Positions 678 to 46,593 of a stretch of DNA of 64,000 nt are shown here, one piece after another (the first letter of the stretch is position 1; every line of letters begins with the position of its first letter). The notes under the pieces were generated by a model. That model did no database searches. It had not been told where the DNA came from and saw only the letters and a list, made by a program, of their open reading frames with translations. The DNA is taken from the NCBI GenBank assembly GCA_004321885.1, contig SCQK01000007.1:32001-96000 (forward strand). The letters run 5' to 3'. A program made the translations under genes and the position numbers. This stretch comes from Patescibacteria group bacterium (GTDB lineage: Bacteria; Patescibacteriota; Patescibacteriia; Magasanikbacterales; GWA2-37-8).

Positions 678-2264
678 TCAAAACAACGTTCGCTCGGCCC
701 GCTGTTTGCTAAGCTCGGACAAAAACCGGCCCACAAATTCCTGGGGACTGCGGCCAAGCGCCACGAAATCGTATAGCAGAAGCGCCACCACCATGGCCGC
801 GTGAAGCTCTTCCCAGCGCTGTTCTCGCGCGCGCGTCCAGGCCGGATGGCTGGTGTTGATATAGGCCGTGTCTTCAAAAATTCGGCCGAGCTGGTCTTTA
901 TCAGCGCCGGTAAACGGCTCCAGCGCCAGCTTCAGGCCGGGCTTGCTTACCCGCTTTTGCCGCTCGCCATCGGGGTCGGATTTTAGGACTGAATTTTTTT
1001 CCCGCTCGCTATTTTTTTGTGCCGCATCGCCCAAACCCAAACGCAGCGTTTCTTCTTTTCCTTTTTTTTTCGCCTTTGAAGCATCAGCCCCAGCCGCCGC
1101 TTTTACCGTTAAGCGCCTCACACCGATGACGTCTTCCAGCTCCGGAAAATCACCGGCCAGATTTCCCAAAACATCTTCAATGCGCCTGGCTAGGGGTTTC
1201 ATGTTCGCCGGCGCTTTCACCGCGGCCTCGGTCGCGCTGTCTTCACCAAACATTTTAAGGATAGGTAAAATCGCTCCCTGAATCGCTTTACGGAAGCGAT
1301 AGTATTTTTTCAAACTGGCCGCGTCGGTCAAAAAACCGTCCTTGTTGGTGGTAAGCAACGTGGACAAAGCCGGAATTTCCACCAGCCCCACCAACTGATA
1401 GGCTGACTTGGGAGATACGCCCGCCCATTCCCAGCCGGTTTTAATCACTTTGCCGTAGGTGGAAACGGCCAGACCCGAAGCCAGGGAAAGCGGCGCCGGC
1501 TTGCCGCCGGTGATTTTATCCAGCCAGCCCGCCTCGCGGTCTTTGAAGGCGATAAATCCATACCCGATTGGTCTTCTTTGTTTGGGCAGGCGCACTTCAA
1601 ACCATTTGTCATTATGGCGGCCGATGTCATCGGGCAAAACCACGCGCCGGCCGTTCACGAAAAACTCCACGCCTTTTTTGTAAACGTGCCGCAAAATTTT
1701 TTCATTCATCCCATGGTTGAGCAGGGGATAAAAATGTTTGATGATGGCGCGTTCTATGAACCCTTCGCCCAAAATCTTTTCCGTCGGCGAACGCCCGCCG
1801 GCCGGACGAGCAGGTAAAACAATGCTCACGCTGGAGCCGCGCGGGTGCGGAATAGTATCGCTGGAGGGAACAAACTTCCACGGCGCGCGAAACAGACCCG
1901 ACAGCCGCCACTCCGAGGCGCAGCGGCCGCCATGGGGACCGCGCGTTTCCGTCACCACGCTGTCGGCTAAAATCAAAGACAGTTTGGCCCCCACGCCGGC
2001 AAAGCCGATGCCTTCGCCGCGCACTTTGTCCGAAGAAGCGATGTTGTGATATTCGCGAAACTGCGGCCGGCTCATGCCGCGCCCGTTGTCCACGCAGGTA
2101 ACGCGCGCCTGCCCCAGGTCGGTAAAAAAATCCACCCGCGTGGCGCCCGAATCCAGGGCGTTGGCCACTAACTCGGTGATAATCACTTCTTCTATCGGCG
2201 AACTATAGCTGTCGCGGATGTCTTCCAAGAGGTGCTTCAAATTTATCCGTGTTTCATTGGACAT
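678..2264 (-). CDS. GHKL-superfamily ATPase (HATPase_c-like N-terminal domain; MutL/Hsp90/MORC-like) with a long C-terminal region of unknown function. The gene is GC-rich relative to its neighbours.
   Basis: Motifs ELVANALDSGATRVD (N-box), DNGRGMS (G1 box) and IGFAGVGAKLS (G2-like). A 528 aa ORF with no frame conflicts. Confidence 0.6.
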   Translation of the reverse strand: MSNETRINLKHLLEDIRDSYSSPIEEVIITELVANALDSGATRVDFFTDLGQARVTCVDNGRGMSRPQFREYHNIASSDKVRGEGIGFAGVGAKLSLILADSVVTETRGPHGGRCASEWRLSGLFRAPWKFVPSSDTIPHPRGSSVSIVLPARPAGGRSPTEKILGEGFIERAIIKHFYPLLNHGMNEKILRHVYKKGVEFFVNGRRVVLPDDIGRHNDKWFEVRLPKQRRPIGYGFIAFKDREAGWLDKITGGKPAPLSLASGLAVSTYGKVIKTGWEWAGVSPKSAYQLVGLVEIPALSTLLTTNKDGFLTDAASLKKYYRFRKAIQGAILPILKMFGEDSATEAAVKAPANMKPLARRIEDVLGNLAGDFPELEDVIGVRRLTVKAAAGADASKAKKKGKEETLRLGLGDAAQKNSEREKNSVLKSDPDGERQKRVSKPGLKLALEPFTGADKDQLGRIFEDTAYINTSHPAWTRAREQRWEELHAAMVVALLLYDFVALGRSPQEFVGRFLSELSKQRAERTLF

Positions 2265-2312: not shown

Positions 2313-3116
2313 TTAGAAACTCTGCGCCAATACCTTCCGTACTTCATCAACCAACTCCGAGGCGCTGTAATTAAATCCGAACTTTTTCCAGAGCGCGTCG
2401 CCGGCCGCGCCATTTGCGTAAAGCCCGGCGCCGGCGGCGAGTAGCGGCTCGTTTTTTGCCAATAGTCCCACGATGAGTCCGGAGAGCACATCGCCAGTTC
2501 CGCCTTTGGTCATTCCTTGGTTGCCGATAACATTACACCAAACCTTGCCATTTTGGCAAACATAGCTTTGCCAGCCTTTTAGTACGATGACGCCGGGATA
2601 TTTTTTGGAAATCAGCCGCGCGTTTTGGGCGGTCGCTTTTTTCTTAAACATTGCCTGAAATTCTCCGGCATGCGGGGCAAGCACGCAATTTTTGTGCAGC
2701 AATTTCAAATCCACCACGCGTAAAGCGCCGGCGTCCAGCACAATTTTCTTTTCCGGAAAAGCGCGCAAAATTCCATTGACCAATTTTTTTGTTTTCTCGT
2801 TTGGCATCAGCCCGGGCCCCAGCAGTATCGCATCACTGTTCCACACTGTCATCCCGACTGAGTCGGGATCCCTTTCTTCAACACGAATAAACTCCGCCAA
2901 CCCCTCGCGCAATTTTTTTATCAACGCAAAATTTTCTTTACTCGCATACACATACACCAAATCAACTAACTTGGCCGCCATCGTCGCGCACAAAATTAGA
3001 GAGCCGTGATATTTTTCCGAGCCGGCGGCAATCAAAACAATCCCGTTCTCGCCCTTGCGGCTCTTTCGCGGCGGCTGGTACAATTTTTTCAACCAGTTTT
3101 TATCTATCTTAATCAT
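2313..3116 (-). CDS. nnr: ADP-dependent NAD(P)H-hydrate dehydratase (YjeF C-terminal domain). An in-frame palindromic element gives the insert RDPDSVGMT.
   Basis: GENGIVLIAAGSEKYHGS, APHAGEF and GGTGDVLSG motifs. The element cccgactgagtcggg lies at 2853-2867 inside the CDS. Confidence 0.8.
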   Translation of the reverse strand: MIKIDKNWLKKLYQPPRKSRKGENGIVLIAAGSEKYHGSLILCATMAAKLVDLVYVYASKENFALIKKLREGLAEFIRVEERDPDSVGMTVWNSDAILLGPGLMPNEKTKKLVNGILRAFPEKKIVLDAGALRVVDLKLLHKNCVLAPHAGEFQAMFKKKATAQNARLISKKYPGVIVLKGWQSYVCQNGKVWCNVIGNQGMTKGGTGDVLSGLIVGLLAKNEPLLAAGAGLYANGAAGDALWKKFGFNYSASELVDEVRKVLAQSF

Positions 3117-3122: not shown

Positions 3123-3155
3123 TTGTCATTCCGGCCCAAGAGCCGGAATCCAGTC
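3123..3155. repeat. Hairpin repeat of the TGTCATTCC..GGAATCC family (intergenic).
   Basis: The sequence cattgtcattccggcccaagagccggaatcc is a perfect stem-loop. Confidence 0.7.
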
Positions 3156-4248
3156 AATTTATTTTTCTCACAACTCCCTTCTCCGCGTCCACCTCCACCA
3201 TATCGCCGTCTTTGAAAACCTGCGTGGCGATTTTGGTGCCGATGACGCAGGGAATGCCGAGTTCGCGCGACAGAACCGCCGCGTGCGACAACACGCCTCC
3301 CTCGTCCGTTACTACTGCCGCGCTGTTTTTCACTATTTCCATCAGTTGAGGATTGGTAGAGCTGGCAACCAGAATATAATTATTTATTGCGATTTTTCCG
3401 GTGTTGTTCTCCAAAAGCAGAACCTTGCCTGCGGCTTTCCCGGCGCAGGCCGGATACCCTTTAATCAACTTCGGCGCTTCTTTTATCTTAAAAAATTCAT
3501 CGTCAATTTTTTTTACCATCGCCGGATTTGAAATAATAAGTTCGCGCTCGCCCCGCTCTACAAATAAATAAAAAAATCCGTTGCGCCGTTTATTCAGCTC
3601 ATTCAGTTCGCCCGCGCTCAATCGCTCTTTATCTAAAAATTTTTTCATTTCCGCGACAGAAAGCAAAGCCAGCAAATCGCCGCTAAACTTCTTTCGCCGC
3701 CCCACATTATTCGCCGCGTCCGCCAGCATTTTTTCTATTTCAGGATAAAATTGAGCCATTTTTTCGCGGTTACGACTAATAGTTTTTATATATTTCGGCA
3801 GGGCCTTTTCGTTATTCCCGACAAAACGCCAAAAACAATTGATAATGCCGATAGCGGCCATAAAATTCGGATACTGCGCGGTCAACGCTTTAAGAAATTT
3901 TTCCGGCCGTGAAGAAATATATCGCCTGTGCTTCAAAATTTCGTTTTGGCATCTGGCAAAAATTCTTTCTGCGGGTTCAAAAGCCATTTTAGTTAATTTG
4001 TCAAAATTCTTTTGCGCAAATTTTTTGGTGCGGTTGATTACTTTCTGCTCATCATACATGGAATGCCAAAAATTCACGCGCCCCTTGCCCGCCACGGCGC
4101 CATACGATATTTTTATCTGCTTTCTTAACAGCTTCGTGTAACCAAGCCCAACGGCGCTTAATGAAAACAACGACATGCATCTTTGAGTGGCAGGCCTCAA
4201 TTTATGCTTTTGAATCAATCTTTTTAGTTGGCCAAAATCAACGGCCAT
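3154..4248 (-). CDS. PEP-utilizing enzyme mobile (swivel phosphohistidine) domain protein. It has no ATP-grasp domain. Paralog 1 of 3.
   Basis: C-terminal motif AAVVTDEGGVLSHAAVLSRELGIPCVIGTK..DGDMVEVDAEKGVV, which matches the PEP-utilizers swivel domain. Confidence 0.65.
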   Translation of the reverse strand: MAVDFGQLKRLIQKHKLRPATQRCMSLFSLSAVGLGYTKLLRKQIKISYGAVAGKGRVNFWHSMYDEQKVINRTKKFAQKNFDKLTKMAFEPAERIFARCQNEILKHRRYISSRPEKFLKALTAQYPNFMAAIGIINCFWRFVGNNEKALPKYIKTISRNREKMAQFYPEIEKMLADAANNVGRRKKFSGDLLALLSVAEMKKFLDKERLSAGELNELNKRRNGFFYLFVERGERELIISNPAMVKKIDDEFFKIKEAPKLIKGYPACAGKAAGKVLLLENNTGKIAINNYILVASSTNPQLMEIVKNSAAVVTDEGGVLSHAAVLSRELGIPCVIGTKIATQVFKDGDMVEVDAEKGVVRKIN

Positions 4249-4278
4249 ATGCCGATAATATACACCACCCTGCTAAAT

Positions 4279-4307
4279 TTGACAAAAACGCGAATTTGTG
4301 CTATAAA
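4279..4307 (+). promoter_or_regulatory. Sigma70-like promoter (TTGACA, 17 bp spacer, TATAAA, with an extended -10 TG) upstream of the high-GC phosphatase gene.
   Basis: ttgacaaaaacgcgaatttgtgctataaa. This is nearly identical in architecture to the promoters at 20513 and 57328. Confidence 0.5.
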
Positions 4308-4552
4308 AAACTGCTTGTTTTGTGTGAATGAAACACCACGGGCTTACGCCCGGGGAACTGCGTTAGAATATTAGCCAATCTTGGCTAACTTTCCCTAAAC
4401 AAGAGCACTTTGAAAAGGGAAAAGTACTCTTGAAAAGCATTTTGATTGTCATTCTTGCCCGTGAGCAGGAATCCAGTCAGGATGCTTTTCAGGAGGATAG
4501 GAACCCCGATTAGTCCGGCAAGGAGCCGGACACCACTGACAAGGAGAGAGAA

Positions 4553-5149
4553 GTGAAGACAATCATCGTTGTGAGGCATCCCGAGAAGGACGGAGACAAG
4601 ATCACGGCACTCGGTGCCATGCAGGCCTTCGCGACCGCGCTGGCGCTCGGCGCCATGTTCCCGAAGATTACCCAGATCCTGTGGTCGGGCGCGAACCGCG
4701 CCTGGCAGGCAGCGATGGTGACCTTGGCCGCGCTCGGTGGCGATGGCCGCTGGCTCAAAGAGAGCCGCGGCTTCCACTTCGAACCGACATTCACGAACGT
4801 CTACGGCAAGGACGCCCCCGCGGCGTTCAAGGCCGAGACGGCCGCCATCAAGGAGCGACTCGGCAAGTCCGCCCTCACCGTCGCCGACGCATTGGAACAC
4901 AGCGAGTACGCGCGCCAGGGCCGAGTGGTTATGACGGACACACTCTTCAAGCTCGCCAGCACGATGAAGGACGACGACGTGGTGCTGGCCGTCAGTCACT
5001 CGCCGTGGTTGGAGCTCGCCGCACTCGACCCGGCGACCATGCCCTACGGCATCGGCGAGGCCGAAGCTGTGGCCTACCACATAGAGGACAGCAAAATCCT
5101 GACCATAGAGCGGGTGTTGTCCTCGCTGGCCGGCAAGGCCAACTGCTGA
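4553..5149 (+). CDS. Histidine phosphatase superfamily protein (phosphoglycerate mutase / SixA-like). It lies in a high-GC patch at about 4380-5260 that is probably horizontally acquired.
   Basis: IIVVRHPEKDGDKITALGAMQA resembles the RHG catalytic motif region. GC content is far above the flanking sequence. The patch splits a tandem paralog family. Confidence 0.55.
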   Translation: MKTIIVVRHPEKDGDKITALGAMQAFATALALGAMFPKITQILWSGANRAWQAAMVTLAALGGDGRWLKESRGFHFEPTFTNVYGKDAPAAFKAETAAIKERLGKSALTVADALEHSEYARQGRVVMTDTLFKLASTMKDDDVVLAVSHSPWLELAALDPATMPYGIGEAEAVAYHIEDSKILTIERVLSSLAGKANC

Positions 5150-5268
5150 CAGCGGACGTCTCCCTCCCTCGCCGGCCCCGCCCGGCGGCCCATTTCCCAA
5201 AACTCAAAGTGCAACGCGCCCACGGTTTCCCGCGGGCGCTTTGTTTTTTTAAAAAATTATCTATCAAT

Positions 5269-5721
5269 TCAGCTTAATCCCAAAGCCGGCTTCATTTTGC
5301 TTACGTCCACTTCCAATTTTTCAACACGCTCTTCCAGTTTCGTGGTCGCGTGGACGGTTAAAGTAAGCTCTTGGTCTTTCTTTTCCATCAGACCAACAAT
5401 CTTATCCAGTGAATTTGATAACTTGCCAATGTCATTCTTGGTCGCCATTGTCTCTTCCATACGTTCCAACCGTTCCGTATGGTCAACAACCGTGCGCGCG
5501 ATTAAATCAAGCCGCTCCTCATGATCCGCGAGTTTTTTATCAATCTTATCAAACCTCTCATCGTGCTCTTTGAATTTGGCATCATGCTCAATGAATTTTT
5601 GGTTAATTTTTCCAAAATTTCCATCATGCTCAACGAGTTTCTGATTCACTTTTTCAAGATTGCCTCCGAGCTCGTTGAGTTTTTGCATTATAGCGTCGGT
5701 CATATGGTCGTATTGTATCAT
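5269..5721 (-). CDS. Coiled-coil repeat protein of unknown function, with internal repeats (KxxEHDxxFxKINQKFIEHD).
   Basis: A 150 aa ORF. The nucleotide-level tandem repeats of about 45 bp at 5520-5660 encode repeated heptad-rich units. Confidence 0.45.
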   Translation of the reverse strand: MIQYDHMTDAIMQKLNELGGNLEKVNQKLVEHDGNFGKINQKFIEHDAKFKEHDERFDKIDKKLADHEERLDLIARTVVDHTERLERMEETMATKNDIGKLSNSLDKIVGLMEKKDQELTLTVHATTKLEERVEKLEVDVSKMKPALGLS

Positions 5722-5782
5722 TCACCAAAAACCGTGTCAAACTTGTCATGCTGAACTTGTTTCAGCATCTCCGTTCGCGGTT

Positions 5783-7258
5783 TCATATTTTTCTCACAAT
5801 CCCCTTCTCCGCGTCCACTTCCACCATATCCCCGTCTTTGAAAATCTTTGTAGCTATTTTTGTAGCAATAACGCACGGCTTTTTCATCTCGCGAGCCACA
5901 ATGGCCGCGTGACAAATGAGACCGCCTTCGTCCGTCACAATGGCGGCCGCCCTTTTCATCGCCGGCACCATATCCGGATCAGTCATGGAACTGACCAAAA
6001 TTTCTCCTTCCAACAAATTCTGCGCTTGGTATTCCATTTTTATCACTCTCACCCTGCCTTTTACTTTTCCGCGATAAGCCACAGCTCCTTTCACTTCCTT
6101 AACTTCTTCATGTCCAAGTCCCAGAAACTTATCAACAAATTTTCTCGCCTTATCTCCGCTGCCATCAACTATTTTTCCCCTACTAAGAAGGCAATAATAA
6201 TAGCCGAACCGTTCATTGATTACTTTTTTCAACCGCGGTCTACTTTTTTCATTCATCAGATAATCTCCCATCTGACGATAATTTAACTGCCGCAAAGATA
6301 TAACATCCATTCCAACTCGGTCGGCAATCGCCTGAAACAAAGGATAGGACCAAAGAATCGCGCGGCTCATTGCCGCCTTTCTGCCGTCGTTTGATATATT
6401 GATTCCTCGTAAATATTCTAAGATATTAAGTTCGGCGCGCGAAAATTTGTATTTTTTTAACAATTTTTGTCTTGCCCGCGAAATTTCACCCGGACCATTC
6501 AAAAGATTTTTCAATTCAACGGAAAAATTATTGTCTGAAAATGTTTTTCTAACCCCGGCGATAGCCAGGTTCAAATTTAAGGGTTGAACATGGTGGCTGA
6601 CCGGAACCCAATCAAAATTTCTAACGTAATTTTCAATTTGGCAATACAAAGCGGGGTGAAAACGTCCCAACTGTTCTATAACTTCTTCGTCGGTTTTTTT
6701 GAACAAAGATTCTAATTCATGTTGACGAACTTTCTTGGCAATATTTAATAAAGCAATCCGCTCGCGATTGTATTCTCCGAGCTCGGTGGAAGAAATCAAA
6801 ATTGACATGTCATCGGCCGGTACCGCGCACTTTAGTATGGTCGGCAATAGTGCACTAATCGCGCCATCCATAATTTTCGGAAAAGGATATAGCCCGAATT
6901 TTGCCGACAATAGCGCGACAAATTTATTAAGCAACCGGCTCAAAACATTTTTGTCAGCTTGGAAGCAATCCCGGAAACGAACTGAATGACAAAACTTAAG
7001 GAGTAGGGAGTCGGCACCTTTAATTACCGCGAGAATACGTGGAATTGAAGTCTTTTTTAACAGCCGCGCAATCCAATTCTTCGCGGCCAAATCATTTTTT
7101 GGATGATAATAAATTGATGTCAACTGCTTGTCCGTAATTGACACCCATCCGTCTAACTTTAAACCAACTCTCAATCCTTGCTCGCGAAAGCCCTTAACAA
7201 AAATGCTCATGTAAAAAGGCATTCTAATTCCGGCGGACATGAATTTTTTCCACTGCAT
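5783..7258 (-). CDS. PEP-utilizing enzyme mobile domain protein, paralog 2 of 3.
   Basis: C-terminus AAIVTDEGGLICHAAIVAREMKKPCVIATKIATKIFKDGDMVEVDAEKGIV. The 3' end shares nucleotide similarity with 3180-3260. Confidence 0.65.
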   Translation of the reverse strand: MQWKKFMSAGIRMPFYMSIFVKGFREQGLRVGLKLDGWVSITDKQLTSIYYHPKNDLAAKNWIARLLKKTSIPRILAVIKGADSLLLKFCHSVRFRDCFQADKNVLSRLLNKFVALLSAKFGLYPFPKIMDGAISALLPTILKCAVPADDMSILISSTELGEYNRERIALLNIAKKVRQHELESLFKKTDEEVIEQLGRFHPALYCQIENYVRNFDWVPVSHHVQPLNLNLAIAGVRKTFSDNNFSVELKNLLNGPGEISRARQKLLKKYKFSRAELNILEYLRGINISNDGRKAAMSRAILWSYPLFQAIADRVGMDVISLRQLNYRQMGDYLMNEKSRPRLKKVINERFGYYYCLLSRGKIVDGSGDKARKFVDKFLGLGHEEVKEVKGAVAYRGKVKGRVRVIKMEYQAQNLLEGEILVSSMTDPDMVPAMKRAAAIVTDEGGLICHAAIVAREMKKPCVIATKIATKIFKDGDMVEVDAEKGIVRKI

Positions 7259-7263
7259 ATTTT

Positions 7264-7932
7264 TTAGATTATTTCCACTGGCACGGTTGCCAGATTCTGA
7301 AATTTCTCGCCTTCTTCTTTGGCACCTATTACTTTATCATTGTAAACAAAATCTCCATAATGAATTGGCATCGCCATTTTTGGATTTATCATGGCCACGG
7401 CTTCGGCCGCTTCCTCGGCCGTCATCGTAAAAACGCCCGAAATCGGCAGCATGGCCACGTCAATGTTTTTTAGATTGGCCATCTCCGGTATTTTATCAGT
7501 ATCCCCGGCCACGTAAATTCGTTTTCCATCCAATTCAACAACGTAACCGACTTTATTTTCCTGGGGCGGATGAAATGGCACACCCGGAGAGCGAAATTTA
7601 TCAATATTATACGCCGGCACAGTCTCTATTTTAATTTTACCCAAGGATAAAAAATCCCCGGGCTTGACGTATTTTATTTCTTTTACCTCGAGACCGACTA
7701 ACTTCTCTTCACATTGCGCGGAAGCGATAACAGTGGTTTCTTCGTCGCAAATCTTTTTAATTTCATCAGGACTGCAGTGATCTTGATGTTCATGGGTGAT
7801 AAAAATATAATCCGCTTTTTCTATTTCCGACTCGGGCAAATTGAACGGGTCAAAAAATATGGTCACTCCTCCCCCTTTAATTTTTACTGCCGCGTGAAAT
7901 ACTTTTTTGATTTCCAATCCTTGATAGTCCAT
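7264..7932 (-). CDS. MBL-fold metallo-hydrolase.
   Basis: HEHQDH metal-binding motif. A 222 aa ORF. Confidence 0.7.
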   Translation of the reverse strand: MDYQGLEIKKVFHAAVKIKGGGVTIFFDPFNLPESEIEKADYIFITHEHQDHCSPDEIKKICDEETTVIASAQCEEKLVGLEVKEIKYVKPGDFLSLGKIKIETVPAYNIDKFRSPGVPFHPPQENKVGYVVELDGKRIYVAGDTDKIPEMANLKNIDVAMLPISGVFTMTAEEAAEAVAMINPKMAMPIHYGDFVYNDKVIGAKEEGEKFQNLATVPVEII

Positions 7933-7966
7933 ATGGGGGATGATTAAATTAATTTAGTATTTTCCT

Positions 7967-8200
7967 CACCACTCCCTTCTCCGCATCCACCCCAGCGCCA
8001 AAACTCGCTTCGCTCATTTGGTGCGGGGCATGCTTCCACCATTACTGTTCTATTCTCTTCACTATACCCTTGTTCGCATCAACTTCAACGAGGTCCCCGT
8101 CCTTAAAAACCTGCGTGGCGATTTTGGTGCCAATGACGCAGGGCTTTTTCATTTCGCGCGCCACAATTGCGGTACGCAAATAGTATACCTTCGTAGCAGT
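7967..8200 (-). pseudogene. Truncated remnant of a third PEP-utilizing swivel-domain paralog (C-terminal fragment only).
   Basis: The minus-strand translation ends ..KKPCVIGTKIATQVFKDGDLVEVDANKGIV. The nucleotide sequence is similar to the 3' ends at 3180-3260 and 5800-5880. There is no complete upstream ORF. Confidence 0.5.
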
Positions 8201-8517
8201 GTTTTTGCAACAAAAAACCGCCTTTACAGACGGCTTTTTGTTAAAAAATCATTGACTTCACAAATGTGACTCCGCCAGAGGCGGATTGATAACTGACACA
8301 AAATTTATTTCGCTTGCGCTCTTAAATTTTGGTCGTTATCAAAAAAACGCACAATGTCTATTCCTTCATCTTTGGCGACTGTTACCGCGATGGATTCCTG
8401 CTTGCGCAGGAATGACAGCGTGGACAATTTGCCAATCGACAGAGTATCACAGTGTTTCCACTGAGTATCTCCAGAAAGGAGGTGATCCATCCACAGCTTC
8501 CGCTACGGATGCCTTGT

Positions 8518-9285
8518 TCATGTTTCTCCCTATGTCGCCATAAGGCACGGACTATATCATCACCCGTTTTGAGAGAATTTTTTGCTTAGCCGGATGCCAT
8601 GAGCCGATAACTCGGATAAAATCTTGGAGCGAATTCGCTCTCACGAATATGCGCCAATAATCCGGGTCAACTCGCTTGCTGGGATTGTGAACTTTCCCGC
8701 AAACGATGCTCATTTTTTTCAACATCTGTTTAAGCTTGCATATCTTGGCTTTATCCTTTTGCACCAATTGTATATACAGCCGCGCTGTAATGTGGTGCGG
8801 AACGCCGCCTTCGGCGTCAAAGAATCCTCGAATATACGCTTTTTGTTCTTCGCGACTTTTTAGCCGCAATGGATCAAAACGGAAATCCAGAAATGACGCT
8901 AATGTTTCAAGAACATGGACATCTCTGTCTTTTCCTTCGCGATACATCCAAGACGAATAGCCAATCTTTTTTAGAAGTCGCTTTAGCGTTTTTAGCCAAC
9001 CGGTTCCCTTTTGTGAAAAACGGAATCTGCGGTTACTGCTAAATGTGCCGTCGTGCAATGCTCCTAAAAGATATGCTTTTATTTCTCCCCTTAACGGGGT
9101 TCGGCGTGTAGTCTCTGAGGGGTCAATCCCGACTAAGTCGGGACGACTTCCCTGCTGATTGACTGCACCGAAAACTTTTTCACTCATACTGCTATAGTGT
9201 AGCACAAGTAGTTTCGGATACACAGTGTTTCCAGCAAACAGCCGAATTTGTTTTTAGCGATTACTCGCTAAGAGTCGCAATTTGT
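8518..9285 (-). mobile_element. Insertion 1 in the 16S gene (near the 3' end, between CCTTGTT and ACGACTT). It carries a LAGLIDADG homing-endonuclease ORF and is probably a self-splicing intron.
   Basis: The exon sequence is interrupted and resumes at about 9285. The ORF 8552-9223 lies inside. Confidence 0.7.
8552..9223 (-). CDS. LAGLIDADG homing endonuclease, intron-encoded.
   Basis: Motifs YLLGALHDGTF and IRGFFDAEGG. An in-frame palindrome (SRPDLVGID) lies near the N-terminus. Confidence 0.75.
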   Translation of the reverse strand: MYPKLLVLHYSSMSEKVFGAVNQQGSRPDLVGIDPSETTRRTPLRGEIKAYLLGALHDGTFSSNRRFRFSQKGTGWLKTLKRLLKKIGYSSWMYREGKDRDVHVLETLASFLDFRFDPLRLKSREEQKAYIRGFFDAEGGVPHHITARLYIQLVQKDKAKICKLKQMLKKMSIVCGKVHNPSKRVDPDYWRIFVRANSLQDFIRVIGSWHPAKQKILSKRVMI

Positions 9286-9696
9286 TTACGACTTTACCCT
9301 AGTCACTGACCCTGCCTTAATTCCCCGAAGGAAACTTTGGGCATTGCCAGCTCCCGTGGTATGACGGGCGGTGAGTACAAGACCCGAGAACGTATTCAAC
9401 GCGCCGTGGCTGATGCGCGTTTACTAGCGATTCCGACTTCATGAAGGCGAGTTGCAGCCTTCAATCTGAACTGGGGCCGGTTTTGATGGGATTGGCTCCG
9501 CCTCGCGGCTTAGCGACCCATTGTACCGGCCATTGTAGCATGTGTGTAGCCCTGGACGTAAGAGCCATGCTGATTTGACGTCGTCCACCCCTTCCTCCCG
9601 GCCCGCTGTTCGCTTGCTTTCGCAAACGCCCAAAGGGCCGGGCGGTCTCGCGTGAATATTTAACACGCGACGTGGGTTGCGCTCGTTTCCCAACTT

Positions 9697-9985
9697 AATG
9701 GTACACCTCCGGATTATTATCTTCACGCAGACTATTCCTTCACCCTTTGCCGACTAAGTCGGCATGAGGGGCTGGCGTATTAGCGGAACTATAAATTCAA
9801 TCACATCCATGAATTCCGCTCTTGGCAAAATGCCTTAGTCGTTACAGGGTCAACCCACGATTTTATTTAAAATCGGGGCGACTTCCCTCGGAGTTCCCAA
9901 ATTCATATGGTATATTTTACCATTTTTACATGAATTTGATAATGAGGTTCTCCGATATGAGCCAGATTTCTCATATCTCTTTTCA
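9697..9985 (-). mobile_element. Insertion 2 in the 16S gene, about 290 bp with no ORF, interrupting the conserved region around position 1070-1100.
   Basis: GGGTTGCGCTCGTT..CCCAACTTAA is followed by about 290 bp of non-rRNA sequence before ATGTTCACGGCACGAGCTGACG resumes. It shares a cgacttccctcgg motif with the other two insertions. Confidence 0.55.
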
Positions 9986-10118
9986 GAGATAGGCCGCGAG
10001 ATGTTCACGGCACGAGCTGACGGCAACCATGCAGCACCTATCTAGCACCCTCGAAGGCGGCGGCCGTTTCCGGCAGCTTGCAGCTAGTAGTTGAGCCCAG
10101 GTAAGGTTCCTCGTTTGT

Positions 10119-10163
<45 letters not shown>

Positions 10164-10290
10164 TATTCCTTTGAGTTTTAACCTTGCGGCCGTACTCCCC
10201 AGGCGGCGCACTTAACGCGTTAGCTTTTTTGAACGGCACTGACAGGGTCGATACTGCCAATACCTAGTGCGCATAGTTTAGGGCGTGGAC

Positions 10291-11320
10291 TACCAGGGTC
10301 ATTTCACTTTACATTTCTGTAAAGATTGGACTATATCATTTTCTGTAAGCTTTCCACTTGCTTTTCTTGAGATTGACATACTCTCGTATTTTTTCCAAAG
10401 AAAAGCCCGTGTTTTTCGCTATTTCAGAAATCCAGCGTTCTTGAAGTTGAACATCGTTATACATCAGAATCACTTTGGGCAAAACTTCTTCAACCTTCGT
10501 ATAAGGCAGAATAATGCGAAGAAGTTTTTTTAGTTCCTCGGTGGAACGCAACCAAATTCTGAAGTATTTTTCTTTTTTTCCATTAACCTTTGTAATGGAT
10601 GCCACTCTGACCTTGATTTTCCAGACTGTTTGAAGATATTTGGCTAAAACTTGCACGGCTTTTTCATCAAAGCCATCGGTGCAGATGACGCCTTTTCTAC
10701 CATTTGAAATGATAGAACCGTCGTCAAACCACCAGATTGCCAGTGATAATGGGCTCATGAAATTTAACCACTTTCTTCGTATTTCCAATCTGTTGTTTTT
10801 ACAGGTCAGATTGTGCATTTCCGTCAATGCTTCCAGGGCCTTGCTTTGATAACGAAGTTTTGCTTGTTTGCTAAACCCGTTATCTTGTTCTTGAAGCCAG
10901 ACCGACTTATCCGAGGATATCTCGGACAGCTGCCTGACCTTCCAGTCAAAGTAGGCTTTCTGAATGACGGAGTGCCTGAAAGAAAATCTGGCGTTTTTGT
11001 ATGGCCGATGGATTTTTAACGACCCGTCGCCCAACAAAGAGCCGAGGATTATTTCTTTCACGCCATTTGACAAAGGCACATTAGAATAATTATTCATAAT
11101 TTATGAATGATAATTAAATGCGCCAACTATCTTTCATCAACTTCATAGTCTCTACGGGGTCGAACCGCATTTGGCGGACGACTTCCCTCGGGATTGTCCA
11201 AACTGATGGTAGTATTTTTTTGTTTGGAGTTTCCCCGATATAGCTGAATGCTCATCTCAACATTGCTGTTGAGAGGGACACCGTTTATGCCGACTTGTTC
11301 CGCCTTAGGCGAACAAGCGA
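10291..11320 (-). mobile_element. Insertion 3 in the 16S gene (around position 790-800), with a LAGLIDADG ORF.
   Basis: The exon breaks after GGACTACCAGGGT and resumes at ATCTAATCCTGTTCGCTCCCCACGC, 11322 onward. Confidence 0.7.
10336..11097 (-). CDS. LAGLIDADG homing endonuclease, intron-encoded.
   Basis: Motifs ILGSLLGDGSL and LAIWWFDDGS. Confidence 0.75.
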   Translation of the reverse strand: MNNYSNVPLSNGVKEIILGSLLGDGSLKIHRPYKNARFSFRHSVIQKAYFDWKVRQLSEISSDKSVWLQEQDNGFSKQAKLRYQSKALEALTEMHNLTCKNNRLEIRRKWLNFMSPLSLAIWWFDDGSIISNGRKGVICTDGFDEKAVQVLAKYLQTVWKIKVRVASITKVNGKKEKYFRIWLRSTEELKKLLRIILPYTKVEEVLPKVILMYNDVQLQERWISEIAKNTGFSLEKIREYVNLKKSKWKAYRK

Positions 11321-12493
11321 CAAAGGATCTATCTAATCCTGTTCGCTCCCCACGCTTTCGTCCATGAGTGTCAGAAACGTACCAGCAAGCTGCCTTCGCC
11401 TTTGGTGTTCTTGCGGATATCAACGCTTATTACGACTACACCCGCAATTCCGCTTGCCTCTTCCGTCCTCAAGTTTGGTAGTTTCAAAGGCAATCTTAGA
11501 GTTAAGCTCTAAGTTTTGACCCCTGACCCGCCAAACCACCTGCGGACGCTTTACGCCCAATAAATCCGGATAACGCTTGAGGTCTCTGTATTACCGCTAC
11601 TGCTGGCACAGAGTTAGTAACCTCTTATTCACGAAGTACCGTCACGAATTCTTCCCTCGTAAAAGCGGTTTACGACCCGAAGGCCTTCATCCCGCACGCG
11701 GCGTCGCTCCATCAGGCTTTCGCCCATTGTGGAATATTCTCGACTGCAGCCTCCCGTAGGAGTCTGGGCAGTGTCTCAGTCCCAGTGAGGCAGGTCACGC
11801 TCTCACGCCTGCTACTGATCATCGCCTTGGTGAGCCATTACCTCACCAACTAGCTAATCAGACATAGGCCCCTCTCCAAGCAGCTTGCGCTTTTAAATGC
11901 GAATGACTTTTGTCCCCGCATTGCCATCGGGTTTTAATTCGCCTTTCGGCGAGCTATCCCCGTCTCGGAGGTAGGTTACCAATGTGTTACTCACCCGTTT
12001 GCCGCTCGTAATTCCCTTGCGGGAACACGTCGCTCGACTTGCATGCCTTAAACACGCCGCCAGCGTTCATCCTGAGCTAGGATCAAACTCTTAAAAAGAG
12101 TTGATCTCGTTCTACCCGACTTCGCCAAAGCTACATCGGGTAAGATGAACGAGTTAATATATACGGATTTATTTATTTATACTCGGTCGCCTCTTCGGCA
12201 GCCGAGTTTCGAATAGACTTTATTTTGTGGTTTTTGTCACGTTTGTGTTGTCAATGAACTTCTTACCCTGTTCGCAGAGTAAGAAAAAAGAGTAATCAAA
12301 TCTTGATTCCTCTTTTCTCTTACCAGTATCCACCGAAGGCGGACTTAGAAGACAAGCTGAATTGTCGGAGGTGCTTTTGCTGAAGGATTTATATTAAATC
12401 TTAGCTTTCGCATTTTATCATATACCAAAATTTTGTCAAGGGGGTGGGTGTGGGCAGAATGTGGATAAAAAAACAATAAAAACCTGCTCTGTA

Positions 12494-12522
12494 TTGACAT
12501 CTGCGCTATTTTGATGTATGTT
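12494..12522 (+). promoter_or_regulatory. Sigma70-like promoter (TTGACA, 17 bp spacer, TATGTT), likely for the NUDIX gene.
   Basis: ttgacatctgcgctattttgatgtatgtt. Confidence 0.4.
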
Positions 12523-12591
12523 TATCGGTCCGCTAAAGTGGCCCACGATTAGCCGCTTGAGCGGCCCAAAACACACAAACAGGAGAACTTC

Positions 12592-13291
12592 TTTGAAAAC
12601 TGCATACGGCTACCCAATCGTAACCACCCGCAACATTCACCTGATTCTCAAGAAGCTTGGCATCAAACCGTGGGAAAAAACGGCCCCGGACACGACACTG
12701 GAAGAATACGCGAAGCGCGATCTGAACGATAAGCAGAGGGCGGAACTGCGCTTCGCGCCAAAACCAGACGTGGTTCGGTTCTACAAGAACCCCGCGACCG
12801 AGGAGCCCTTCACTGGCTTCTGCAATGTGGGGGATCCGTGGCTCACGGTCTTCGCGCTGGTGCCGTGGGACCCCGAGCCGTTGGTCGTCGTCACCGTGGA
12901 GTTCAAGCACGGCTTCGGGAAGGTCGTGCTGGTACCGCCCAGCGGAAACATCTCCCAGAAGGATCGCGGTTCATGGCCTCGCGCGGCCAAACGTGAGTTT
13001 GAGGAAGAGACCGGCTTCAAGCTGGCGCGGATTATCGCCCTCGCAAGTGGTAAGGAACAGGGAGCGAGCGTCCGCCAGTACACCGCGGGAATCTACTCCT
13101 TCCTGGGAATCCTAAAAGACCCGGTGGAGCGCCGGCCATCGCGGCTGGACGACAACGAACTGCTCAAGGTCGTCCTGGTACCCTTGTCGGATTGGCTAGA
13201 TATCATCGACAGAGGGGACACCTACGACATCGCGGCCGTCGTCCCCACCCACCTCGGCGTGCGCAAGCTCCAAAAACTCCGCATGCTATAG
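12592..13291 (+). CDS. NUDIX hydrolase, high-GC and probably horizontally acquired. The ORF opens at 12518, but a TTG start at 12592 preceded by AGGAG is more likely.
   Basis: Nudix box ..REFEEETGF... GC content is much higher than the genomic background. Confidence 0.55.
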
Positions 13292-13368
13292 TAACGCCGC
13301 GCCACTCCCCATACTCCTATGTGTGCTGTCCCCCCGCCGCAAGCGATTCCTCGCCCGGCGGATTTTTT

Positions 13369-14064
13369 TTAAGAAGAATGTCTCTTTCGCCACTCGGCGA
13401 TTTTTTTATGAGCGCCGGAGAGAAGAATTTTCGGCACTTTCCAGCCGTTGAAATCTTCGGGTCTGGTGTACTGCGGGTATTCAATCACTCCTTTAACAAA
13501 AGTTTCTTCCTTGAGAGAATCTTTGTTCCCCAAAACTCCCGGCGTCAAACGCGCGGTCGCTTCCACCACTGCCAGCGCGGCCAACTCGCCGCCGGCCAAA
13601 ACATAGTCCCCCACGGAAATTTTTTCGTCCGCGAGTTTATAGACGCGTTCGTCAAATCCCTCGTAGCGCCCACAAATCAAAATCAGGCGGTCAAGTTTGG
13701 AAAATTTCTCGGCCATCCGCTGGTCAAATTTTTTTCCTGCTGGATCTAAAACGATAATCCGCGTGTCATTGCGAGGAGCGGAGCGACGCGGCAATCCCAT
13801 GGGTTTGCTTCGGCCTTTCAGGCCTCGCAATGACAATGCGCCAATCGCTTTCAGACAATCAAAAATCGGCTGAACCTGTAAAACCATTCCCGCGCCGCCG
13901 CCATAGGGAGAATCGTCCACGTGGCCGTGCTTATCCAAAGTATGGTCGCGAAAATTACGCGCCCGCACCGAAATCGCGCCCGCTTTTTGCGCCCGCCCTA
14001 AAATACTCCGCGAGCAGTAGTCGTTTATTATTTCCGGAAAAATTGTGAGCACGTCAAATTTCAT
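13369..14064 (-). CDS. trmD: tRNA (guanine37-N1)-methyltransferase.
   Basis: MKFDVLTIFPE..YGGGAGMV..LICGRYEGFDERV is the characteristic TrmD signature. It lies downstream of rpsP and the KH gene. Confidence 0.85.
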   Translation of the reverse strand: MKFDVLTIFPEIINDYCSRSILGRAQKAGAISVRARNFRDHTLDKHGHVDDSPYGGGAGMVLQVQPIFDCLKAIGALSLRGLKGRSKPMGLPRRSAPRNDTRIIVLDPAGKKFDQRMAEKFSKLDRLILICGRYEGFDERVYKLADEKISVGDYVLAGGELAALAVVEATARLTPGVLGNKDSLKEETFVKGVIEYPQYTRPEDFNGWKVPKILLSGAHKKIAEWRKRHSS

Positions 14065-14122
14065 ATCTTTCTAACAAAACCGGCCGCCTGAGGCGACCGG
14101 TCTAAATGTCTATTGCTTCAGC

Positions 14123-14437
14123 TTAGATGTTCAAGCTGTCCACAGAGCTGGTGTCCACCGTTTGAGAAACGGGGTTGCGCGACATGCGGCCGCCTTCCGG
14201 TTCGTTGATTTTCAAGTTCACGCGGGCGTTGTTCTTGGCCCCCACGATCTTGAGCAACGTGCGGATGGAACGAGCCGTCTGTCCTTGGCGTCCGATCACG
14301 TATCCCATATCGGCTTGGTTGATGTCCAGAGTTATCAGGACTCCCCGTTCGTCTATGGTTCTCGTGGTCTTGACGTCACCAGGATTGTTGACTATCGCTT
14401 TCACGATTGTCTCCACAAACTGTTGGTCGGTTTCCAT
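14123..14437 (-). CDS. KH-domain RNA-binding protein (YlqC/KhpA-like).
   Basis: VIGRQGQTARSIRTLL carries the GxxG KH motif. It occupies the conserved position between rpsP and trmD. Confidence 0.7.
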   Translation of the reverse strand: METDQQFVETIVKAIVNNPGDVKTTRTIDERGVLITLDINQADMGYVIGRQGQTARSIRTLLKIVGAKNNARVNLKINEPEGGRMSRNPVSQTVDTSSVDSLNI

Positions 14438-14553
14438 AGTGTATCGGTATATCTTTATAATTCGCAGCCTGTCGACATGTGGTCGCCTTAGGCGGCCACC
14501 AGTGCTACTGTATAAAATATTAACACAAAAATTCTTTATCAGTCAATCTTGGT

Positions 14554-14922
14554 TTAAGCGGCCGGCTCGCCCGCCGGAGCTTCAGCGGAGGCGGGAGCGG
14601 CTTTTGGTTCGTTGGCCTTTTTCTTTTCCGCCAATTTGGCCGCACGCTTCTTGGAAATATACACGGCTTTTTTCTTCGGAGCGGCTGTGATTATCCCCTT
14701 GCTCAAAAATAAATTATGCACGGTGTCCGAGGTCTGCGCGCCCTGGCCGAGCCAGTATTTTATCCTGTCGGCTTTGACGACAAAACCATCCTCTTTGTGC
14801 GGATTAAAGTCGCCCAAATTCTCCAAAATTCTGCCCTGCGTGTCGCGGGCCTTTTCGGAAATTATCAGGCGGTATGTCGCGAAGTTTTTCTTTCCCACTC
14901 GTTGTAAACGGATTGTTAACAT
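14554..14922 (-). CDS. rpsP: 30S ribosomal protein S16, with a lysine/alanine-rich C-terminal extension.
   Basis: MLTIRLQRVGKKNFATYRLII is a bS16 N-terminus. Confidence 0.85.
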   Translation of the reverse strand: MLTIRLQRVGKKNFATYRLIISEKARDTQGRILENLGDFNPHKEDGFVVKADRIKYWLGQGAQTSDTVHNLFLSKGIITAAPKKKAVYISKKRAAKLAEKKKANEPKAAPASAEAPAGEPAA

Positions 14923-14930
14923 AAATAAAG

Positions 14931-14962
14931 ATATGGATTCCGGCTCTGCGGCCGGAATGACA
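14931..14962. repeat. GGAATGACA-family hairpin (intergenic).
   Basis: ggattccggctctgcggccggaatgacag. Confidence 0.6.
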
Positions 14963-15016
14963 GACGGAATTTGAGAGCGTGACTATCTTATTACAAAGCC
15001 GCTTGTTTGTCAACTT

Positions 15017-15062
15017 ACCCCTCCCTTACCCTCCCCTTATCAAGGGGAGGGGGCGGGAGGGG
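15017..15062. repeat. GGGGAGGG-family palindromic element overlapping the 3' end of smc.
   Basis: cccctcccttaccctccccttatcaaggggagggggcgggagggg. It supplies the terminal codons ..DTPPAPSP of SMC. Confidence 0.7.
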
Positions 15063-19807: not shown

Positions 19808-19868
19808 TAAAAATCTGCTAAACTAAACTAACGGATTCCCCCGACTAAGTCGGGAGAATGACAATTAT

Positions 19869-35754: not shown

Positions 35755-36231
35755 ATGACATTTCGTCGTCGCATCGGTATCGTCTTCGTCTGCATCCTGC
35801 TCGGGTTCGTTGTTCTGTTCGTGGCAGGACCCGGTTTCATGGTGGTCGACAACAGGGACATCCGAGCCGCCGATGATGTCTCAGCGGAGGACATGGCCGC
35901 TTGGCTGGGAGATGCTGGCTGGCAGGCGGATGCTACAAAACATTACTATCTCATCAACGTATCGGGAGTTGTGCATTCTCTCTCGCCGCGATCGCTCAAA
36001 TACCTCGAGGCGCGCATCACAAATACCAAGGCGAATCTGCGCGTGTACGCCGTCACACCGTTATTGGGTTTTGTCGTTGAACCGTTTCGACTCGGAACGG
36101 TGAGCCTCCTGTTTCTGATAGAGACACCGGAAGAGCGAGACCTAGCGGACATCATGCGGCAGTTCAGCTTCTGTGTACGTCAAAGTGATCAGAGCGGGCT
36201 ATGTATGCCCGTGTTGTCGGGGACACGTTGA
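35755..36231 (+). CDS. Membrane hypothetical protein within the island.
   Basis: N-terminal TM IGIVFVCILLGFVVLFVAG. Confidence 0.35.
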   Translation: MTFRRRIGIVFVCILLGFVVLFVAGPGFMVVDNRDIRAADDVSAEDMAAWLGDAGWQADATKHYYLINVSGVVHSLSPRSLKYLEARITNTKANLRVYAVTPLLGFVVEPFRLGTVSLLFLIETPEERDLADIMRQFSFCVRQSDQSGLCMPVLSGTR

Positions 36232-46481: not shown

Positions 46482-46593
46482 CCCCACTGTCATTCCGAGC
46501 GGAGCGAGGAATCCCTTATACTACGTTAACAGTTTCTATATCCCCCTTCTTCAAATGCAACACAATCGCCAGCGCCTCGCACAGCCACGAGGC
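46482..46593. repeat. 112 bp direct repeat (copy 1). It includes a MITE-like hairpin and a duplicated 3' gene tail.
   Basis: About 90 percent identical to 47237-47348. On the minus strand it encodes ..EALAIVLHLKKGDIETVNVV with a stop, as a remnant. Confidence 0.75.

Follow-up and report, generated by a model that had tools for sequence, protein, structure and literature searches.

Probable acceptor subunits of split, rifampin phosphotransferase-like dikinases beside a GC-rich histidine phosphatase superfamily gene in a Patescibacteria genome

Introduction

HpeHI of Rhodococcus, CreHI of Corynebacterium, and the PpsAB phenylphosphate synthase of Thauera are two-component dikinases in which one subunit carries an ATP-grasp domain and the other combines a domain resembling the rifampin (RIF)-binding domain of rifampin phosphotransferase (RPH) with a phosphohistidine swivel domain; HpeH alone catalyzes phosphotransfer between substrates (PMC12167813). 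RPH-Lm, by comparison, is a single chain of 867 amino acids (aa) with a fused N-terminal ATP-grasp domain at residues 1 to 314 (PDB codes 5HV1 and 5FBS; PMC4844700). AMP and Pi are established products for both RPH and HpeHI. Here, we analyze a stretch of 64,000 nucleotides (nt) from a Patescibacteria group bacterium (assembly GCA_004321885.1, contig SCQK01000007.1, positions 32,001 to 96,000; hereafter the window, to which all coordinates refer) that contains two genes, copy 1 and copy 2, whose products end in such a swivel domain. Based on domain content, fold, catalytic motifs, and the adjacency or fusion of related genes to ATP-grasp genes in relatives, we consider it likely that both encode H-type (HpeH-like) subunits of split, RPH-kind small-molecule dikinases that are charged in trans by an ATP-grasp protein.

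The two modules share with HpeHI, CreHI, and PpsAB a split architecture and a C-terminal swivel domain with its histidine in GGxx(C/S)HAA, and the ATP-grasp gene adjoins the module genes in relatives among bacteria of the candidate phyla radiation (CPR) and archaea of the DPANN group. The described systems, however, pair one H subunit of ~600 aa with each ATP-grasp subunit and are encoded in aromatic-catabolism operons, whereas the modules here are 364 and 491 aa long and belong to arrays (2 modules in the window and up to 14 or more elsewhere) that have no more than a single ATP-grasp gene. These arrays occur in CPR and DPANN genomes outside any aromatic-catabolism context and with a phosphatase gene alongside, and the window itself has no ATP-grasp gene. 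The likeness to HpeH, CreH, and PpsA-alpha is drawn through RPH. Searches of the PDB yielded no structure of an H subunit, and the published work on HpeH relied on an AlphaFold model (PMC12167813). Identity to RPH-Lm is 17%, copy 2 scores 63.6 bits against a cutoff of 999 for the RPH model, and nothing points to rifamycin as a substrate. The swivel domain is also homologous and highly similar to that of phosphoenolpyruvate (PEP) synthase (PpsA) and pyruvate phosphate dikinase (PPDK), which have the swivel histidine in GGxT(S/C)HAA, but the threonine is replaced by leucine in copy 1 and isoleucine in copy 2. Unlike PpsA and PPDK, moreover, the modules have neither an N-terminal ATP-grasp domain nor a C-terminal PEP/pyruvate-binding domain, and their swivel domain is terminal rather than central.

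Results

Copy 2 resembles the acceptor half of RPH, and copy 1 does so over its C terminus

The sole Pfam match in either protein was PF00391 (PEP-utilizers mobile domain), located at the C terminus of both copy 1 (residues 290 to 358; E = 5.7e-23) and copy 2 (E = 1.5e-25). The catalytic histidine of copy 1 is His322, within GGVLSHAAVLSR (codon at about 3283 to 3285), and that of copy 2 is His450, within GGLICHAAIVAR (codon at about 5909 to 5911). By BLASTP, the proteins are 41% identical over their C-terminal 177 aa and unrelated before that. Each belongs to a large, conserved family that is nearly confined to CPR bacteria and DPANN archaea: copy 1 to a short form of about 360 to 373 aa and copy 2 to a long form of about 480 to 510 aa. 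The swivel histidine and GG..(C/S)HAA are invariant in both families. Full-length homologues cover 97 to 100% of copy 1, and 22 homologues align across 97 to 100% of the 491-aa open reading frame (ORF) of copy 2. The NCBI annotation of copy 2 (EPN28_01675) is 362 aa long and starts at Met130; the longer ORF is supported by these full-length homologues and by an AlphaFold model that is confident from the first residues (predicted local distance difference test [pLDDT], 89.8). Genes on a Falkowbacteria contig (L002) are N-terminally truncated in the same way, being called at 195, 422, 357, and 394 aa where the ORFs are 512, 504, 500, and 538 aa.

In the model of copy 2, a small beta/alpha N terminus is followed by a long helical domain (residues 54 to 350) and the swivel domain (residues 353 to 490). 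The long-form family profile aligns to RPH residues 551 to 866 (E = 2e-26), which comprise the second half of the RIF-binding domain and the swivel domain. Within this alignment, R666-E667..K670 of RPH is matched by the long-form motif N-[E/D]-x-R-K, in which R293 is invariant. In RPH, the second phosphotransfer depends critically on Arg666 and Glu667, and Lys670 takes part in the hydrogen-bond network around the phosphate (PMC4844700). Judged from profile and model, copy 2 matches the H-type architecture, with a RIF-binding-like helical portion (about residues 1 to 380), a C-terminal swivel domain, and no ATP-grasp domain in the chain. A resemblance to RPH had been suggested in an earlier note on this DNA, made from the sequence before any database search, and for copy 2 this suggestion is borne out. 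When the short-form and long-form profiles were compared using hhalign, only the last 188 columns aligned (181 to 370), and the short-form profile matches RPH chain residues 703 to 866 (5fbs numbering). Copy 1 thus appears to consist of a distinct N-terminal domain of ~180 aa, the last helices of the RIF-binding-like domain, and the swivel domain, and it matches the H-type architecture, on sequence grounds, only over its C-terminal ~190 aa.

That neither protein has an ATP-grasp or PEP-binding domain, as the earlier note stated, agrees with both Pfam and window-wide profile searches. PF01326 (PPDK_N, the ATP-grasp family) had no Pfam match in copy 1 or copy 2. A profile of the C-terminal PEP/pyruvate-binding domain from 17 canonical PpsA sequences had a best E value of 4.2 in the window and no match in any multi-module locus, and Pfam found no such domain in the window. 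No NCBIfam model came near its cutoff for either protein: the PEP synthase model scored 119 bits against 598, and the RPH model NF041857 (RIF_Ptrans_rph) gave 50.2 bits for copy 1, below the value for copy 2. Copies 1 and 2 are not PEP synthases, as searches for two of the three domains that define these enzymes came back negative, and they are not single-chain RPHs, as they have no ATP-grasp domain and score far under the NCBIfam cutoff. A phage origin was rejected because no relatives were found in viral contigs.

Modules form tandem arrays in CPR and DPANN genomes, often beside an ATP-grasp gene

A hidden Markov model (HMM) census covered 85 sequences, comprising loci L001 to L084 (79 of them from GTDB representative genomes) and the window. 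Two or more modules were present in 43 of the 85. Array sizes were as follows.

Nealsonbacteria contig (L007): 14 swivel domains across 21 kb
Paceibacterota contig (L001): 15 genes called with PF00391 across 21 kb; by census, 13 swivel domains
P0013 contig: 8 modules over about 16 kb
Several Woesearchaeota, Taylorbacteria, and Falkowbacteria loci: 8 to 10 modules each

Modules in these lineages are as a rule arranged in tandem, and the window is a small example. A separate partner ATP-grasp gene, which normally adjoins that of an H subunit, is absent from the window and adjacent or fused in relatives: among the 43 multi-module loci, PPDK_N occurs within about 10 kb as a stand-alone gene in 11 and in fused form in 8. 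On the Falkowbacteria contig, five modules are followed directly by a 320-aa gene with PF01326 as its only domain. Stand-alone PPDK_N genes of 315 to 328 aa lie at the array edge in L002, L003/L086, L004, L013, L017, L045, L050, and L053; the L045 locus, whose five-module array ends in PPDK_N, also shares its NAD(P)HX dehydratase neighbor with the window (E = 1.6e-86). Fusions supply Rosetta-stone evidence. In a Woesearchaeote (L024, JAFGGS010000004.1), a single stop-free ORF of 3,768 codons at 6206 to 17509 (plus strand) encodes one PF01326 domain and then eight PF00391 domains, each module having its own GGxT[CS]HAA motif, with no stop codons between modules. In L020, PPDK_N is fused to two modules, and in L046, a complete 859-aa RPH-like gene is followed by five modules that lack ATP-grasp. 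Proteins of about 800 aa with two modules exist in both orders, short plus long and long plus short. In the loci examined, fusions are always to PPDK_N and never to a PEP/pyruvate-binding domain.

Within arrays, swivel domains are about 55% identical, while N-terminal domains share a median of 4 to 16% identical residues (maximum, 26%). This pattern of conserved swivel domains and diverged N-terminal domains indicates that the arrays are old and that the putative acceptor-binding domain has diversified. A phmmer search with the N-terminal domain of copy 2 found 64 of 1.84 billion representative sequences at an E value of ≤1e-3. Genes that handle phosphate recur as array neighbors (His_Phos_1, HAD, LMWPc, HD, and metallo-beta-lactamase [MBL] genes). 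A full-text literature search found no paper that describes this module expansion in CPR bacteria or DPANN archaea; a CPR resistome survey counts "rph" genes and does not describe their architecture (PMC8651080).

A shared ATP-grasp protein may charge several acceptor modules

In the reaction scheme that we propose, a separate stand-alone PPDK_N protein of about 315 aa would bind ATP. The swivel histidine (His322 in copy 1 and His450 in copy 2) would attack the beta-phosphate and become pyrophosphorylated, and hydrolysis of the gamma-phosphate would leave phosphohistidine. The swivel domain would then carry the remaining phosphate to the N-terminal domain of the same module, where a bound small molecule, X, would be phosphorylated, for a net reaction of ATP + X + H2O -> X-P + AMP + Pi. 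A single ATP-grasp protein could serve several diverged modules, each with a different acceptor. A histidine-phosphatase-fold protein encoded beside the modules (see below) would work on the same phosphate economy, either by resetting phosphohistidine modules or by hydrolyzing the phosphorylated product. We infer four elements of this scheme: trans-charging at this locus, one shared ATP-grasp protein, small-molecule acceptors, and the target of the phosphatase. The phosphodonor, which the earlier note had called unclear, is thus now read as ATP, delivered via a separately encoded ATP-grasp subunit whose gene is adjacent or fused in relatives but not in the window.

Several observations weigh against assigning the window modules to split dikinases. 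A PPDK_N profile built from five sequences and run against all six frames of the 64 kb had a best E value of 3.9, and tblastn found nothing, so that trans-charging here is deduced from what other genomes hold; no PPDK_N is seen within the sequence examined in 24 of the 43 multi-module loci. The residue two positions before the catalytic histidine is leucine in copy 1 and isoleucine in copy 2, where the family consensus and PEP synthases have threonine. Identity to RPH is low, as given above, and hhalign detects no similarity between the N-terminal ~180 aa of copy 1 and the RIF-binding-like domain. The window array is small and partly decayed, with two stumps. Finally, paralogues of 563 aa in L001 (15838 to 17529) and L003 (2894 to 4585) fuse the swivel domain to XRE-type helix-turn-helix (HTH) domains (HTH_19 and HTH_26), which hints that some modules may be regulatory, possibly DNA binding, rather than catalytic.

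The genomes of CPR bacteria, among them the ultra-small bacterium studied here, and of DPANN archaea measure ~1 Mb and encode a minimal metabolism, and how these organisms acquire metabolites from their hosts and retain them is an open question. Against this background, arrays of 8 to 14 diverged modules that span 15 to 20 kb, on the order of 2% of a ~1-Mb genome, are an unexpected investment. More tentatively than for the two genes themselves, and with the balance of probability somewhat against it, we suggest a system common to CPR and DPANN lineages in which one ATP-grasp "charger" serves many diverged acceptor modules (up to 14 or more, with 8 fused in one Woesearchaeote) and is opposed by a histidine phosphatase with a GC content at third codon positions (GC3) of ~0.8 to 0.87. 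The modules might phosphorylate many small molecules, such that metabolites scavenged from the host are trapped or host compounds are inactivated, and the phosphatase GC3 could reflect conserved codon deoptimization that throttles expression. If each module does act on a different compound and shares the ATP-grasp protein, the arrays would be a compact and evolvable toolkit for "phosphorylate-and-trap" or detoxification, a two-component dikinase subfamily recognized in 2025 only in aromatic catabolism would gain a one-to-many architecture, and natural fusion proteins would be at hand for structural study. Compared with characterized dikinases, these arrays differ in the many modules per ATP-grasp gene, the restriction to CPR and DPANN genomes, and the phosphatase companion. 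There is also a consequence for annotation, as the labels "PEP synthase" and "pyruvate, water dikinase" are widely and wrongly given to these genes, whose starts are often miscalled as well.

A GC-rich histidine phosphatase superfamily gene lies between copies 1 and 2

The features of the region are listed below in the order in which they are met along the minus strand. All genes of interest are on that strand except for the 198-aa phosphatase gene.

To about 8478, minus strand: 16S rRNA gene, interrupted by a LAGLIDADG-bearing insertion and by a group I intron
8208 to 8243, minus strand: terminator hairpin with a perfect 16-bp stem (folding free energy [dG], -20.8 kcal/mol; z score, -6.8)
8042 to 8179, minus strand: larger module remnant, the final 45 codons, ending ..AIVAREMKKPCVIGTKIATQVFKDGDLVEVDANKGIVKRIEQ* (ORF list, DNA repeat, and profile match)
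7949 to 8017, minus strand: smaller stump, the final 13 codons, VDAEKGVVRKILN* (ORF list and 34-nt repeat)
7264 to 7932, minus strand: MBL-fold metal-dependent hydrolase, 222 aa (PF13483, E = 7e-27; PF12706, E = 3e-22)
5783 to 7258, minus strand: copy 2, long-form dikinase module, 491 aa (ORF and PF00391)
5269 to 5721, minus strand: coiled-coil protein, 150 aa (ORF; weak coiled-coil-type Pfam and NCBIfam matches)
5206 to 5249, plus strand: hairpin and U-run resembling an intrinsic terminator (dG, -22.5 kcal/mol; z score, -3.49)
4553 to 5149, plus strand: histidine phosphatase superfamily (branch 1) gene, 198 aa, GTG start (ORF, fold, and family)
4279 to 4307, plus strand: near-consensus sigma-70-like putative promoter, TTGACA-17-TATAAA (sequence match read by eye)
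3154 to 4248, minus strand: copy 1, short-form dikinase module, 364 aa (ORF and PF00391)
2313 to 3116, minus strand: NAD(P)HX dehydratase (ORF and Pfam)

The proteins of copy 1, the phosphatase gene, and copy 2 are 100% identical to NCBI entries, two of which are tagged EPN28_01660 and EPN28_01675. A high-GC segment at this position, noticed earlier from the sequence, is real: GC content is 0.665 at 4401 to 5300, the top 600-nt value of a window that averages 0.494 (standard deviation, 0.054), although four other segments also reach ≥0.60 (up to 0.64; 36001 to 37300, 12701 to 13400, 57401 to 58000, and 59801 to 60500). The phosphatase gene has a GC content of 0.645 overall and of 0.61, 0.46, and 0.86 by codon position (GC3, 0.864), compared with 0.42 to 0.44 for the flanking genes. 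Its GTG start at 4553 is preceded by an AAGGAG ribosome-binding site. The putative promoter points to the gene from about 245 nt upstream of the start. The consensus promoter previously claimed for the gene can indeed be read there, but position 6 of its -10 hexamer is A, which is why an automated scan did not list it. The terminator-like hairpin downstream of the gene faces the 3' end of the convergent coiled-coil gene, and none of 200 shuffled sequences was as stable. The ribosome-binding site, GTG start, terminator hairpin, and codon-position GC are evidence that 4553 to 5149 is a real gene. An antisense ORF (4385 to 5200, minus strand) was rejected as a gene, as it has no Pfam match and the corresponding antisense reading is broken up in L002; it is stop-free because its codons begin at the GC-rich third positions of the sense gene.

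Only 10 homologues of the phosphatase were found among 5.8 billion proteins. Although the window protein itself has no PF00300 match even at an E value of ≤10 and reaches no Pfam or NCBIfam threshold, 6 of the 10 family members match PF00300 (best E = 7e-7). Residues R8, H9, E95, R121, and H149 are invariant among the 10 homologues and R49 is nearly so; the Arg-His pair lies in the N-terminal motif VRHPEK, and H149 lies in SHSP. An AlphaFold 2 model (pLDDT, 90.9) matched histidine-phosphatase-fold structures in the PDB in all 50 Foldseek matches listed (probability, 1.0; E values from 1e-6). The protein is thus predicted with confidence to have the branch 1 fold of the histidine phosphatase superfamily, as the earlier note had proposed. 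It shares the fold, the Arg-His pair, R49, and H149 with other branch 1 members (SixA, PhoE, PGAM5, RosC, and phosphoserine phosphatase). It differs from them in reading RHP instead of RHG, in belonging to a tiny family (the 10 proteins found), and in that the five family members with readable surroundings, like the window gene, sit beside dikinase-module arrays with an extreme GC3 in AT-rich genomes. The listed Foldseek matches mix small-molecule phosphatases (RosC, phosphoserine phosphatase, TIGAR, and PhoE) with the protein phosphatase PGAM5 and so do not discriminate between a small-molecule and a protein substrate.

The phosphatase gene is probably a recurrent companion of the arrays

Scanning metagenomes brought in one new phosphatase locus (L085) and a longer contig of a known one (L086). 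With these, six independent instances of the family have readable surroundings (the window, L002, L003/L086, L004, L005, and L085), and all are in or beside module arrays. In 6/6 loci the gene and the modules occupy opposite strands, and in L003/L086 and L004 it sits between the PPDK_N gene and the modules. Its GC3 is 0.79 to 0.86 in five of the six loci, where overall GC is 0.36 to 0.49; in the sixth it is 0.54 versus 0.34. Between loci, identity is 34 to 84% for the phosphatase, 27 to 64% for neighboring modules, and 55 to 62% for PPDK_N, and no copies are near identical. The phosphatase has therefore diverged to the same order as its neighbors, which argues against a recent one-off insertion.

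Other arrays hold comparable genes. The L007 array has a PF00300 gene (E = 1e-11; GC3, 0.79) that shares the strand of the modules and is distantly related to the window phosphatase family (hhalign probability, 90%), and the L025 array has one (E = 2e-8; GC3, 0.87) on the opposite strand adjoining PPDK_N. The L045 locus repeats the layout of the window: a module, a coiled-coil gene (11322 to 11855, plus strand), an opposite-strand GC-island gene, and then PPDK_N. The island gene there encodes 267 aa (12031 to 12834, minus strand) and has a GC3 of 0.84 in a locus whose GC is 0.37. No similarity to the window counterparts was detected for the coiled-coil protein or for the 267-aa protein, and the latter is of uncertain family (weak PmrG-like match, E = 0.033; hhalign probability to the phosphatase family, 2.6%). 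Other in-array genes on either strand (HD, HAD, GIY-YIG, FGase, and LMWPc) have a GC3 of at most 0.46, and the His_Phos_1 gene of the L001 array is not GC rich.

These comparisons bear on the claim of the earlier note that the phosphatase gene is a horizontally acquired island that came to lie by chance between two paralogues. The composition of the gene (GC of 0.645 and GC3 of 0.86 against 0.42 to 0.44 in its flanks), its own promoter-like site, ribosome-binding site, and terminator, its opposite orientation, and the rarity of its homologues would all fit such a transfer. A uniform GC content in relatives, which had been named beforehand as evidence against transfer, was not seen either; the same spike recurs, so on this count transfer is not refuted. 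The recurrence of the gene at five other independent array loci, always on the opposite strand and with the GC spike in four, nevertheless speaks against the idea of an island that splits the family. GC-rich His_Phos_1 genes in the L007 and L025 arrays, together with a GC-rich L045 gene whose family is uncertain, point the same way, as does the comparable divergence of phosphatase, modules, and PPDK_N. Repeat analysis of the window found no direct repeats flanking the GC island, and the proteins searched included no high-GC donor homologue. We thus regard a chance insertion as unlikely and the gene as probably a recurrent companion of the arrays.

The composition of the phosphatase gene is a separate puzzle, in that it appears to be held against the genomic mutational bias. 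At 34 to 84% identity, synonymous sites should have drifted to host composition, so either GC3 is maintained or the gene has been acquired repeatedly. Repeated reacquisition is possible, though less parsimonious. One idea for why GC3 is high is that rare codons may throttle an enzyme that opposes the kinase.

Truncated modules and alternative readings of the intact ones

A 120-nt repeat occurs three times in the window (3160 to 3279, 5786 to 5905, and 8051 to 8170) at 77% identity, and a fourth copy of 34 nt (7958 to 7991) is 91% identical to the end of copy 1. Searching the window in six frames with the family profile gave exactly three matches in 64 kb, the third being the larger stump, where the match is restricted to HMM positions 454 to 493. 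The reading frame of this stump opens only past the site of the catalytic histidine, and the stump cannot be functional. The searches found nothing module-like upstream of it, and the terminator hairpin downstream of the 16S rRNA gene (listed above) lies immediately upstream of the remnant and marks the point at which the third module is cut off. That the third locus is a truncated remnant, as first noted, is supported by ORF, repeat, and profile evidence, but it comprises two nested stumps rather than one. The swivel motif said to be common to the three loci is only partly so. The DNA repeat is real, but the larger stump lacks VTDEGG..(S/C)HAA, and copy 2 reads CHAA and VIATK where SHAA and VIGTK had been given. 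Recent gene conversion between the 3' ends was rejected for want of a strong signal, as only 50 to 64% of identical residues in the last 39 codons have identical codons. Short swivel-only fragments also occur in other arrays (e.g., L007:6483-6713 and L007:17120-17320), suggesting that the two stumps of the window are ordinary array debris; in the proposed scheme, they would be products of array turnover, the third module having been cut off at the 16S rRNA terminator.

The stumps could also be taken to mean that the modules here are orphaned and decaying, with the ATP-grasp partner lost and the intact ORFs on their way to becoming pseudogenes like the stumps. Such decay would account for the absence of PPDK_N from 64 kb, for two remnants adjoining intact copies, for 2 intact modules where relatives have 5 to 14, and for leucine or isoleucine in place of the consensus threonine. 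Yet both ORFs are full length for their families (97 to 100% coverage), every invariant residue is kept, including the catalytic histidine, and the model of copy 2 is confident throughout. A further paralogue, EPN28_03310, lies on another contig of the same assembly, which indicates that the system is dispersed in the genome and that the partner may be too. Decay of the intact genes is, in our view, quite improbable.

We also considered whether the modules form a phosphohistidine signaling or regulatory relay, in which an ATP-grasp kinase would load receiver-like swivel carriers, joined to various output domains, and a SixA-like phosphatase would reset them. The paralogues fused to an XRE-type HTH in L001 and L003 would suit a relay, as would the recurrent histidine-phosphatase-fold gene beside arrays, one member of which is named "phosphohistidine phosphatase SixA" by the Joint Genome Institute, and the weak PDB sequence matches of the window phosphatase to the protein phosphatases PGAM5 and Sts-1. 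However, the long-form N-terminal domain is homologous to the substrate-binding domain of an enzyme and keeps the counterpart of its phosphotransfer motif, the annotations in the phosphatase family are automatic, the Foldseek matches do not discriminate, and the HTH is the only output domain seen. We regard a relay as very unlikely. Less probable still is that the modules are parts of a split PEP synthase, PPDK, or phosphotransferase system enzyme I-like system that takes phosphate from PEP via a separate PEP-binding domain: the best sequence matches of the swivel domain are indeed PEP synthases (8a8e, E = 4e-24) and databases name these proteins "PEP-utilizing enzyme" or "pyruvate, water dikinase," but the 17-sequence profile found no stand-alone PEP-binding domain in the window or the arrays, every fusion is with PPDK_N, the swivel domain sits at the C terminus, as in RPH, rather than centrally, as in PpsA and PPDK (PMC4844700), and the PEP synthase score is far under its cutoff.

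Neighboring genes

The genes between the modules had been described as a coiled-coil protein and an MBL-fold hydrolase, both between copy 2 and the third locus. The hydrolase gene is indeed flanked by copy 2 and the stumps, being on the strand of copy 2 and directly upstream of it, but the coiled-coil gene is between copies 1 and 2, separating copy 2 from the phosphatase gene. The hydrolase matches NCBIfam PRK00685 (E = 1.4e-31) under the curated cutoff, and homologues lie beside arrays in three DPANN loci, L040 (8792 to 9439; E = 2e-15), L050 (249 to 1025; E = 1e-14), and L041 (1875 to 2552; E = 3e-7). The coiled-coil gene, which contains a 42-nt tandem repeat (5573 to 5656), has no recurrent homologue across 86 loci. 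The best promoter-like site of the region (5712 to 5740, minus strand; TTGACA-17-TACAAT with an extended TG, 11/12) has a -10 hexamer that overlaps the first ATG of this ORF (5721), so a downstream methionine start is possible.

Farther from the modules, 678 to 2264 (minus strand), two genes from copy 1, encodes a 528-aa protein with an N-terminal HATPase_c_3 domain (GHKL ATPase) and a long C-terminal remainder. A homologue of the riboflavin synthase encoded at 51 to 677 lies inside the L046 array (13019 to 13624). There are two interruptions in the 16S rRNA gene (8475 to 12098, minus strand): an insertion with a LAGLIDADG_2 ORF (10336 to 11097) and, near the 3' end, a group I intron (RF00028; 8528 to 9297) with a LAGLIDADG_3 ORF (8552 to 9223). 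The Rfam 16S match ends at 9238, while the true 3' end, GGATCACCTCCTTTCT, lies beyond the intron at about 8478 to 8493.

A dispersed hairpin resembling repetitive extragenic palindromic (REP) elements, GTCATTC-N8-16-GGAATC, occurs 10 times in the window against 0 expected: at 639 to 667, 3125 to 3150, 4448 to 4473, 8393 to 8416 (minus strand), 14936 to 14961 (minus strand), 19116 to 19141 (minus strand), 19834 to 19862 (minus strand), 38872 to 38896 (minus strand), 46489 to 46513, and 47244 to 47268. One copy is in the 5' region of the phosphatase gene and another is just downstream of copy 1. The inner stems vary among copies yet remain self-complementary.

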